DNA from: Escherichia coli
Lineage (GTDB): Bacteria; Pseudomonadota; Gammaproteobacteria; Enterobacterales; Enterobacteriaceae
Assembly: GCF_003790525.1 (NCBI RefSeq)
Contig: NZ_CP033635.1
Reading direction: 5' to 3' (one strand)
DNA: 64,000 bases
Below, piece by piece: positions 17,220-20,938 of the stretch. The notes beneath the pieces were generated by a model, which was not told where the DNA came from, searched no databases, and saw nothing but the letters and a program-made list of their open reading frames with translations. Made by a program: the position numbers and the translations under genes. Within the stretch, counting starts at the first letter, position 1. Every line of letters starts with the position of its first letter.

Positions 17220-20021
17220 TTATTCGACGTTCAGCGCGTCATTAACCAGATCTTGTTGCTGTTTCTGGTGAACGGACATATACCCTACCGCCGGAGAGGC
17301 GGAGGCCGGGCGGCCTGCATAACGCAGAGAAGCCCCAAACGGAATCACTTCACGGAAATGATGCTGGCTGCAGTACCATGCGCCCTGATTGAGCGGCTCT
17401 TCCTGGCACCAGACAAAATCCTTGACGTGAGCAAACTGCTGCAACACTTCCTGCATCGCTTTATGCGGGAACGGGTAGAGTTGCTCGATACGCACAATGG
17501 CGACATCGTGTTGATTGTTCTTACGACGCTGTTCCAGCAGGTCGTAATAAACCTTACCAGAACACATCACTACGCGCTTCACGCCCTTCGGATCAAGCTC
17601 GTCGATTTCACCGATGGCTGGCAGGAAGGTGCCGTTCGCCAGTTCTTCGAGGCTGGAAACCGCCAGCGGATGACGCAGCAGGGATTTCGGCGACATCACG
17701 ACCAGCGGACGACGCATCCCGCGCAGCGCCTGACGACGCAGCATGTGGTAAACCTGTGCCGGGGTAGACGGTACGCACACCTGCATGTTTTGCTCAGCGC
17801 AAAGTTGCAGATAACGTTCCAGACGCGCGGAGGAGTGCTCCGGCCCCTGCCCTTCGTAACCGTGCGGCAGCAACATCACCAGACCACACATCCGGCCCCA
17901 TTTCTGCTCGCCAGAGGAGATGAACTGGTCGATAACCACCTGAGCACCGTTGGCGAAGTCACCGAATTGCGCTTCCCAGATAGTCAGAGTGCGTGGTTCT
18001 GCGGTGGCATAACCGTATTCAAACGCCAGTACGGCTTCTTCAGACAGTACGGAGTCCCAGACACGGAACGCGCCCTGGCCGTTATGGATGTGTTGCAGCG
18101 GCGTGTAAGTGGAACCGTTAGACTGGTTGTGGATCACCGCGTGGCGGTGGAAGAAGGTACCGCGACCGGAGTCTTCACCCGACAGGCGAACCGGAATGCC
18201 TTCGTCAACCAGCGTGGCGTAAGCGAGGTTTTCCGCGCCGCCCCAGTCGAACAGTTTCTCACCAGCAGCCATCGCCTGGCGATCGCCATAAATCTTGGCA
18301 ACGCGAGACTGCATTTCAACTGCTTCCGGCACCGTGCTGATGCGTTTAGCCAGTTCCTGCAGGCGCTTCATCTCAACTTTGTTCGGGTACTCTTCGTCCC
18401 ATTCGTGGTTGAGGTACGGCGACCAGGTGAAAGAGTGCATGTTCATCGGACGCCACTCTGCTACAACGCAATCGCCAGCATCCAGCGCATCGCGGTACAG
18501 GTTAACCATCTCGGTGGCATCTTCCAGCGTCGCGACTTTTTCCTGCTCCAGCTTGTCAGCATAGATTTTGCGCGGCGTCGGATGTTTTTTGATTTTCTGA
18601 TACATCAGCGGCTGGGTTGCGCTCGGCTCGTCGGCTTCGTTGTGGCCGTGACGGCGGTAGCACACCAGGTCGATGAAGACATCACGTTTAAAGGTGTTAC
18701 GGAAATCGAGCGCCAGACGGGTCACAAAAGCAACGGCTTCCGGATCATCCGCGTTTACGTGGAAAATCGGTGCCTGAACCATCTTACCGATATCAGTACA
18801 GTACGGTGTAGAACGAGCATCCAGCGGATTAGAGGTGGTGAAGCCAACCTGGTTGTTGATAACGATACGTACCGTACCGCCAACTTCATAACCACGCGCT
18901 TTCGACATGTTCAGGGTTTCCTGAACCACGCCCTGCCCGGTCACTGCGGCGTCACCGTGGATGGTGATTGGCAGCACTTTGTTGCTGCTCGGCTCATCGA
19001 GTCTGTCCAGACGGGCACGAACAGAACCGATAACTACCGGGCTGACAATCTCAAGGTGAGACGGGTTAAACGCCAGCGCCAGGTGCACCAGGCCGCCATC
19101 GGTCTGGAAGTCAGACGAGAAGCCCATGTGGTATTTCACGTCGCCCGTGCCGAGGTGTTCTTTATGTTTACCGGCAAACTCGTCGAACAAGTCTTGCGGT
19201 TTTTTACCCAGCACGTTCACCAGCACGTTCAGACGACCACGGTGCGCCATCCCGAGAACCACTTCGCGGGTGCCGCTGTTGCCAGCGTGGCGGATCATCT
19301 CTTTAAGCATCGGGATTAACGCGTCACCGCCTTCCAGCGAGAAGCGTTTTGCGCCAGGGAATTTTGCGCCGAGGTAACGTTCAAGGCCTTCAGCGGCGGT
19401 CAGTTCGCTTAAGAAGCGTTTTTTCTCTTCGCTATTGAAAGTCGCGCGACCAGACTCGATACGCTGTTGGATCCAGCGTTTTTCTTCGGTGCTGGTGATG
19501 TGCATATACTCGGCACCAATCGGGCCGCAGTAGGTTTGCTTGAGGGCTTCCAGCAGCTCGCCGAGTTTCATGGTTTCTTTGCCGCTGGCAAATGAACCGA
19601 CGTTGAAGGTCTCCTGGAAGTCTGCTTCGGTCAGATCGTGGAAAGACGGATCCAGATCGGCCACTTTATCTTGCTGCCACAGTCCCAGCGGATCGAGATT
19701 CGCATGCTGGTGACCACGGAAGCGGTATGCGTTAATGAGCTGCAGGACTTTAACCTGCTTCACATTGGTGTCAGGGTCGGAGATCGTTGAAGAGTAACGT
19801 GAAGCGTCTTTCGCCAGGCGGCGGAAATATTCACGCGTTTGAGAGTGGAATTGATCCGGTTTGACTCCCGTACCAGGTAACTGCTGGAACGTCGAACGCC
19901 AGTTAGCGTCAACCGAGTCAGGATCGGTTAAGAAGTCTTCATAGAGCTGTTCTATCCAGCTCTGGTTTGCGCCAGAGAGGTAAGAAGAGTCCAACCAGGC
20001 TTTCAAAGCGCTGTTCTGCAT
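17220..20021 (-). CDS. sucA: 2-oxoglutarate dehydrogenase E1 component
   Basis: 933-aa translation recognised as SucA. Confidence 0.97.
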
Positions 20022-20221
20022 CGTGATCCCTTAAGCATCTTTTTTATGCTTACTTCGCCGTGGATACTACCACGCACAATGATGTGCGTGCCGGGGTTCA
20101 CTTGCGAGCTCTTGTCTACGTAGTGGCTCGCGAAGGAACCTTTAAAAACTGTCTTAGTGTCAGGGGCAGTTTTTAAAGATTTCCTGAATAGCCGGGGGAT
20201 TTCCCCGGCATCAACATTTAA

Positions 20222-20938
20222 TTACGCATTACGTTGCAACAACATCGACTTGATATGGCCGATGGCGCGCGTCGGGTTCAGCCCCTTCGGACATACACTG
20301 ACGCAGTTCATGATGCTGTGACAGCGGAATACACTGAATGCATCGCTCAAACCGTCGAGGCGGCTGTCAGTCTCGGTATCACGGCTATCGATCAGGAAAC
20401 GATATGCCGCTAACAAGCCTGCCGGGCCGATAAACTTATCGGGATTCCACCAGAAAGACGGACAAGAGGTTGAACAACATGCGCAGAGAATACATTCATA
20501 CAACCCGTCGAGTTTTTCGCGCTGCTCTGGCATCTGTAAATGCTCGCGAGCTGGCGGATTTTGTCCATTATTCAACAGGTAAGGCTTAATTTTCTCATAT
20601 TGCGCATAGAATTGTCCCATGTCTACCACCAAATCGCGGATCACCGGTAAACCTGGCAGCGGGCGAATCACAATCTTCTTGCCCGGCTGGTTGAGTGCCG
20701 AAATCGGGGTAATACAGGCCAGACCATTCTTACCGTTCATGTTCAGACCGTCGGAACCGCACACACCTTCGCGGCAGGAGCGGCGGAACGACAGGCTGGG
20801 ATCTTTCTCTTTCAGCTGGATAAGCGCATCCAGCAGCATCATGTCGCGACCTTCTTCCGCTTCCAGGGTGTAATCCTGCATACGCGGAGCATCATCAACA
20901 TCCGGGTTATAGCGATAAATTGAAAACTCGAGTCTCAT
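20222..20938 (-). CDS. sdhB: succinate dehydrogenase iron-sulfur subunit
   Basis: 238-aa translation recognised as SdhB, with Cys clusters. Confidence 0.97.
   Translation of the reverse strand: MRLEFSIYRYNPDVDDAPRMQDYTLEAEEGRDMMLLDALIQLKEKDPSLSFRRSCREGVCGSDGLNMNGKNGLACITPISALNQPGKKIVIRPLPGLPVIRDLVVDMGQFYAQYEKIKPYLLNNGQNPPAREHLQMPEQREKLDGLYECILCACCSTSCPSFWWNPDKFIGPAGLLAAYRFLIDSRDTETDSRLDGLSDAFSVFRCHSIMNCVSVCPKGLNPTRAIGHIKSMLLQRNA

Follow-up and report, generated by a model that had tools for sequence, protein, structure and literature searches.

The window analysed here is a stretch of 64,000 nucleotides of Escherichia coli DNA, and it carries the junction between the sdh and suc halves of the sdhCDAB-sucABCD operon on its minus strand. 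The upstream gene is sdhB, an open reading frame of 238 aa at 20222-20938, and the downstream gene is sucA, one of 933 aa at 17220-20021; both are annotated under these names in E. coli genomes that are 100% identical here, and the RefSeq annotation of those genomes is the source of our gene names. Between them lies a non-coding gap of 200 nt (20022-20221), through which the mRNA runs from 20221 to 20022. When 451 nt spanning the region are used as a query, E. coli SMS-3-5 is 100% identical and 5425 of the 5426 complete genomes give a match. The junction sets the amount of 2-oxoglutarate dehydrogenase relative to succinate dehydrogenase, at a branch point of carbon and nitrogen metabolism. The operon is reported to yield the sRNA SdhX from the 3' end of sucD.

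As an RNA, the gap is strongly structured. Its predicted folding energy, a check that the earlier note on this DNA had proposed, is -71.6 kcal/mol, compared with -47.3 +/- 4.7 for shuffled sequences (z -5.15). The earlier note had claimed two inverted repeats between sdhB and sucA, and both are found inside 20022-20221 with the bases as given. The GC palindrome CACGCACA/TGTGCGTG, which had been placed at 20061-20080, in fact lies 10 nt away, at 20071-20078 and 20083-20090, while the 11-bp AT-rich arms, placed at 20142-20178, occupy exactly 20141-20151 and 20167-20177. Both repeats had been written on the plus strand, whereas the two genes and their mRNA are on the minus strand. Besides these two, the gap holds three further hairpins, at 20191-20209 (GCCGGGG/CCCCGGC), 20104-20131 and 20032-20052. 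The leader that precedes sucA is composed, from 5' to 3' on the mRNA, of hairpins H0, H1, H2 and H3, the GlnZ site, hairpin H4 and the ribosome-binding site.

The two palindromes differ in how far they depart from chance. The AT-rich arms are perfect over 12 nt (20140-20151 and 20167-20178) and 93% complementary over 15 nt (20137-20151 and 20167-20181). Shuffling the gap 5000 times with its dinucleotides preserved gave a perfect arm of 8 nt or more, with a loop of 3-20 nt, in 3.7% of cases and one of 11 nt or more in 0.1%; only these single-arm frequencies are used, as the joint figure for both repeats includes nested versions of one hairpin. Because an arm of at least 11 nt is found in only 0.1% of the shuffles, the AT-rich repeat is clearly non-random by itself. 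The GC repeat is only marginally non-random before its conservation is counted.

The AT-rich palindrome is the base of a long stem, H1 (20134-20185, minus strand), with its 5' arm at 20167-20185, its 3' arm at 20134-20151 and its apex at 20152-20166. The stem has 5 + 13 + 2 pairs (about 20 bp) with one bulged A and one small internal loop, and its minimum free energy is -17.9 kcal/mol (z -4.6). Within the species, the conservation on which the earlier note had let its proposal depend is borne out, as H1 is intact in 5423 of the 5426 complete E. coli genomes. For relatives, we scanned species-representative genomes with SdhB and obtained 80 loci in which sdhB is followed by sucA; the comparison set consists of 29 other Enterobacterales and 13 metagenome relatives. 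Both AT-rich arms are recognisable in the 29 Enterobacterales with a comparable gap, and an invariant GGUUCC anchors the 3' base of the stem. Unconstrained folding of the whole gap brings back H1 in 22 of 30 species sequences, and the basal stems of other species have about 15-22 pairs.

We then analyzed the pairing of H1 in 23 distinct arm pairs with the apex masked. Standard pairs account for 90.2% of the cells, a proportion that may lean slightly towards the structure, as the 5' arms were located by a sequence motif and checked by eye, but that is conservative in another respect, because MAFFT did not bring into register the arms of Photorhabdus, Xenorhabdus, Providencia and Rosenbergiella, which are shorter by 1 nt. 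When the partner is slid by one column, pairing falls to 64-69%. Seven of the 16 pairs show compensation and 22 cells are changed on both sides, and none of 500 shuffles is as good; these changes are independent of how the 5' arms were located. Point compensations occur in Yersinia, Serratia and Rahnella. In Erwinia psidii the two arms, CCUGGCAAGAAAC and GUUUCUUGCCAGG, are unrelated in sequence and yet complementary, and the same is true of Rosenbergiella. Depending on the species, the two arms stand between 5 and 145 nt apart, which is the length of the apex. They are A/T tracts, conserved in sequence as well as in pairing in many genera, and the base of the stem (AGGAA/UUCCU, GGUUCC) is also invariant in sequence. 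This invariant base points to an extra constraint that is not obviously explained by recognition by RNase III.

The strand on which the helices act is given by the mismatches that are tolerated. In H1 there are 32 G.U pairs against 9 A.C pairs, and in the remainder of the leader 15 against 2; because this excess of G.U holds across species, the helices are assigned to the sense strand, namely the mRNA. An assignment by folding energy in E. coli only was also tried and failed, as H1 alone folds slightly better in antisense (-21.8 versus -17.9 kcal/mol).

The remaining hairpins lie between H1 and the sucA start. H2 (20104-20131, minus strand) has the stem GCGAGC...GCUCGC and is 100% paired in 21 leaders, a set enlarged with 13 distinct metagenome relatives. 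H3 (20071-20090, minus strand) corresponds to the GC palindrome and forms an 8-bp hairpin, CACGCACA-UCAU-UGUGCGUG, with -13.5 kcal/mol and z -3.6. Among the leaders of 12 Enterobacteriaceae genera, 96.9% of its cells are paired and six of eight pairs are compensatory; in the 21 leaders 94% are paired, again with six of eight compensatory. Outside Enterobacteriaceae sensu stricto, different hairpins take the position of H3. H4 (20032-20052, minus strand; UAAGCAU-AAAAAAG-AUGCUUA) has a purine-rich loop and stands directly 5' of the ribosome-binding site. It is weaker (-5.7 kcal/mol, z -3.4), is 98.6% paired in the 21 leaders and has two compensatory pairs. The structure of the whole leader is 98.0% paired in these 21 sequences, against 21-48% when slid.

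Since compensatory substitutions go beyond the shuffle and register controls in H1 as well as in H2, H3 and H4, the leader classes as a structured cis-acting mRNA element. H1 and H3 are RNA helices that have been kept by selection for pairing on the sense strand. Among the options offered in the earlier note, a partial terminator, an RNA-processing site or a protein-binding dyad, the RNA one is thus upheld, because compensatory substitutions keep both helices on the mRNA strand.

Between H3 and H4 lies a single-stranded segment, AUCCACGGCGAA (20054-20065, minus strand), which is the target of the GlnZ seed. GlnZ is a nitrogen-regulated sRNA with a validated pairing site in the sucA leader (PMC9731577). 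With the seed sequence taken from that paper, UUGCCGUGGAAA, the best duplex in the leader, at -18.3 kcal/mol, forms at 20054-20065, where 5 nt separate it from H3 upstream and H4 follows closely downstream. The sequence CCACGGCGAA is kept in 27 of the 30 Enterobacterales gaps listed and is absent from two Pantoea and from Rosenbergiella. A purine-rich stretch of 15 nt near the sucA start is required both for basal translation and for repression by GlnZ (PMC9731577), and we read this stretch as the loop of H4. The ribosome-binding region, read from the sequence, is AGGGAUCACG (20022-20031, minus strand); its form AAGGGAUCA is present in 28 of the 30 gaps listed, with AAGGGCUCA instead in Erwinia psidii and Xenorhabdus. 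This region includes GGG-A-UCAC (20023-20030), the 3' strand of a putative helix P0, whose putative 5' strand is GUGAACCC (20094-20101, minus strand). The latter is complementary to the ribosome-binding region, is predicted to pair with it in the minimum free energy structure, and is invariant in the 21 leaders.

Two natural variants concern this 3' module. In Citrobacter sp. FP75 (positions 2400-2530 of the locus) the GlnZ site and H4 are separated by an insertion of about 125 nt, which puts the GlnZ target far from the start codon; in Salmonella the GlnZ site has reportedly been described at -166. The gap of Acerihabitans arboris (positions 2218-2285 of the locus) is only 68 nt long and is without H0-H3, but the GlnZ target is retained there, together with H4 and the ribosome-binding site. 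This gap suggests that the 3' module can work without H1.

The part of the gap next to sdhB is polymorphic in E. coli. H0 (20191-20209, minus strand; GCCGGGG-AAAUC-CCCCGGC) begins 12 nt after the sdhB stop codon and folds with -16.0 kcal/mol (z -3.6); it is a candidate 3' stabiliser or weak terminator of the sdh part. Judged by eye, nearly all Enterobacterales have a GC hairpin at the position of H0, often followed by a U-run. The short form with H0 after the sdhB stop (20186-20221 in the window) is carried by 1760 of the 5426 E. coli genomes. In K-12 the gap is 300 nt long and has three REP sequences (positions 207-335 of the locus) where the window has H0; from the 5' arm of H1 to the sucA ATG, K-12 and the window are identical except for one base in the loop of H3. 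Gaps filled with tandem REP-like units are found in E. albertii (550 nt) and Superficieibacter (660 nt).

In about 1114 E. coli genomes, including UTI89 (positions 151-329 of the locus), the leader is of a divergent allele, with 80-90% identity over 168 nt, that is almost the same as the allele of E. albertii (positions 2560-2773 of the locus). In this allele H2 has become the compensatory GCGGAC/GUCCGC, and the loop of H3 is about 11 nt longer while the stem is kept. The allele looks like an old one, or one that has been exchanged between species.

Insertions have also reached H1 itself. In E. coli B2.3 (around positions 150-230 of the locus) a REP replaces the 5' arm and the apex, so that the long stem cannot form; this strain, a natural knockout, is one of only three among the 5426 genomes without an intact H1. 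As B2.3 has lost the 5' arm to the insertion, H1 is dispensable at least in that background. In several lineages, including Phytobacter and Enterobacter sp., the apex of H1 holds an inserted palindromic element of about 130 nt, and the leaders of Serratia have a related copy at another place. The element matches a dispersed intergenic repeat of E. coli with 19606 places and a median of five per genome, and it resembles the ERIC/IRU repeats. The apex seems to be a tolerated landing site for palindromic elements.

Beyond the Enterobacterales, in Vibrio, Aeromonas, Shewanella and Alteromonadales, we found nothing like H1, and canonical terminators of a hairpin plus a U-run follow sdhB there; the leader is restricted to Enterobacterales. 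One of these terminator stems, AUAGCCAUCC...GGAUGGCUAU with its U-run, is common to Alteromonas, Aeromonas and relatives of Idiomarina. To be shared by such distantly related non-enterobacterial genera is unusual for a terminator stem.

We also searched for the leader among known RNA families. A cmscan of 19500-20700 against Rfam with E up to 10 gave only two chance hits, to unrelated families, and no family reached its gathering score over the whole window (1-64000). In particular, the leader has no match to the sucA, sucA-II (RF01758) or sucC (RF01759) motifs of Rfam; the sucA motif of Burkholderiales is the one that we take to be RF01070. It is thus a conserved leader in the best-studied bacterium that is without an Rfam entry.

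The question is then what these helices do. Cunningham and Guest are said to have reported in 1998 RNase III processing in the sdhCDAB-sucABCD intergenic region. Gordon et al. treated the sucA site as a known RNase III site and saw RNase III-dependent loss of coverage at K-12 position 758515, inside the gap (PMC5371410). SucA, but not SucB, drops in an rnc14 mutant (Miyakoshi et al., PMC9731577), and repression of SucA by GlnZ is lost in a delta-rnc strain (Walling et al., bioRxiv 10.1101/2022.04.01.486790). RNase III accommodates a duplex of about 22 bp (PMC6212723). H1 has the size of such a substrate, a nearly continuous helix of about 20-22 bp, and H3 with its 8 bp does not. Because H1 is the only helix of this size in a leader free of REP sequences, it is the best candidate for RNase III processing. 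We consider it probable that H1 serves as an RNase III processing stem while H3 and H4 keep the GlnZ target single-stranded. The two palindromes themselves reflect, at the level of the DNA, a pair of RNA hairpins in the leader between the sdhB and sucA cistrons of the sdhCDAB-sucABCD mRNA. H1 would be the site at which RNase III cuts the read-through transcript from Psdh; the cut would detach suc from sdh and determine the 5' end of the suc mRNA, and this new end may in turn govern the stability and translation of the suc message. H3 would be a structural insulator that, together with H4, brackets the single-stranded GlnZ target and keeps it exposed.

The situation in K-12 bears on the first part of this scheme. 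There the REP sequences span 758410-758535 and H1 spans 758546-758597; the coverage loss at 758515 falls within the third REP, some 26 nt to the 5' side of H1, and the duplex of REP1 and REP2 is a longer helix than H1. The known RNase III sites could therefore lie in the REP sequences and not in H1. As to earlier work, the outline of the biology of the gap was already available in 1998 and was taken up again in 2017-2022, and Stead 2011 does not mention the locus. The present analysis adds covariation support for the two helices, a description of the leader's architecture and of its natural variants, and the findings that it is confined to Enterobacterales and has no entry in Rfam. No new kind of mechanism is revealed, but the variants (the REP-free form, the UTI89-type allele and the strain without one H1 arm) offer handles on the action of RNase III and GlnZ at sucA.

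The invariance of certain segments allows another explanation, namely that the leader is a translational control device in which alternative pairing opens and closes the sucA ribosome-binding site and RNase III is secondary; we hold this possible but unlikely. Three segments, each of them invariant in the 21 Enterobacteriaceae leaders, are complementary to one another: GGUUCC forms part of the 3' base of H1, GUGAACCC follows H2, and AAGGGAUCAC lies at the ribosome-binding site. The minimum free energy structure pairs GUGA-A-CCC with GGG-A-UCAC, and when the 5' arm of H1 is removed in silico from the E. coli leader, GGUUCCUU pairs with AAGUGAACC and the Shine-Dalgarno sequence is unpaired with a probability of 0.82 instead of 0.40. 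The fall of SucA but not of SucB in rnc14 (PMC9731577) is consistent with such a device, and the Burkholderiales sucA motif likewise overlaps the Shine-Dalgarno sequence (PMC1950547). However, the segments never vary, so that covariation cannot test their pairing, and the effect in silico does not generalise: out of 26 species it goes up in 8 and down in 8, with Yersinia, Serratia, Brenneria, Pectobacterium and Rahnella among the reversed cases. In E. coli, moreover, opening of the Shine-Dalgarno sequence goes along with stronger pairing of the AUG.

In its widest form, this idea would make H1 and everything after it up to the sucA start a cis-regulatory RNA, uncatalogued so far and spread across the Enterobacterales, in which cleavage or opening of H1 re-pairs GGUUCC, GUGAACCC and AAGGGAUCAC and so switches the translation of sucA independently of sdh. 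We put it forward tentatively, with a small chance of being right. If true, the leader would be the functional counterpart of the Burkholderiales sucA and Pseudomonas sucA-II motifs, and the switch would integrate the activity of RNase III, GlnZ with Hfq and possibly a further signal.

It is rather improbable that the hairpins are stability elements only, with H1 and H0 blocking 3' exonucleases on the sdh part and H2 and H3 shielding a processed or Psuc-initiated suc 5' end from RNase E. All of them are stable on folding, the K-12 gap has an internal terminator with partial read-through according to Conway et al. (PMC4161252), and the transcript is also processed by RNase E (PMC6393394). Such a role leaves unexplained why a helix of about 20 bp should be conserved at fixed length with an invariant base and a free apex.

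The earlier note had also raised a protein-binding dyad, and the AT-rich arms could in principle be bound as DNA by a protein that regulates the internal suc promoter, for example IHF or Nac, or be a part of that promoter; this we regard as very unlikely. IHF is said, again by Cunningham and Guest, to repress Psuc. An internal suc promoter and binding of Nac at the sucA promoter are described in the literature (PMC9731577; PMC6393394), and the conservation of the A/T-tract arms in sequence as well as in pairing would suit a DNA site. Because the spacing of 5-145 nt between the half-sites is too variable, the arms are not a dyad of fixed spacing. Moreover, the Erwinia and Rosenbergiella arms, unrelated but complementary, and the sense-strand excess of G.U over A.C pairs (32 to 9 in H1) speak against it. 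The IHF core WATCARNNNNTTR has no match in the gap (20022-20221), and a scan of 19800-20500 for a sigma-70-like promoter consensus gave no match. Finally, although modulation of read-through is documented in the K-12 gap (PMC4161252), the proposal that one or both palindromes are a partial intrinsic terminator between sdh and suc can hardly be right, as H1 is followed by UCGCGAG and H3 by GUAGUAUCC, neither with a U-tract, a terminator scan of both strands over 19800-20500 found no site, and the terminator-like element whose position is conserved is H0, which comes right behind the sdhB stop.

H1 as a putative processing stem and H3 with H4 as the proposed frame of the GlnZ target can be compared with several known systems. 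The element shares with REP/BIME and ERIC sequences the property of being an intergenic palindrome that forms an RNA hairpin, and these repeats adjoin it in K-12 and E. albertii or sit inside the apex of H1 in Phytobacter and Enterobacter. REP/BIME or another dispersed repeat was considered as an identity for the element and rejected: in E. coli the H1 region and the whole leader each have a median of one place in a genome, and there is no similarity to the REP sequences of K-12. With the Hfq-dependent pairs GlnZ-sucA and Spot 42-sdhC the leader has in common that H3 and H4 flank the GlnZ site and that the purine-rich loop region of H4 is needed for repression. It differs from sites of this type in that the role of H3 is putative here and that other hairpins stand at the H3 position outside Enterobacteriaceae.

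The sucA motif of Burkholderiales (PMC1950547) and the sucA-II motif of Pseudomonadales (RF01758; PMC2864571) are likewise covarying structures of several helices 5' of sucA, and their stems overlap the Shine-Dalgarno sequence; they are presumed to be cis-regulatory. Compared with them, the present leader has different helices, is confined to Enterobacterales and is intercistronic, after sdhB. The RNase III sites of the sdhCDAB-sucABCD operon in the 1998 study by Cunningham and Guest concern the same locus and the same organism, with the difference that K-12 carries REP duplexes and the present strain does not. In forming a helix of about 20 bp within a single molecule, in a part of a long operon mRNA that is not translated, H1 resembles these and the other RNase III stems of pnp/rpsO, rnc, adhE and aceE.
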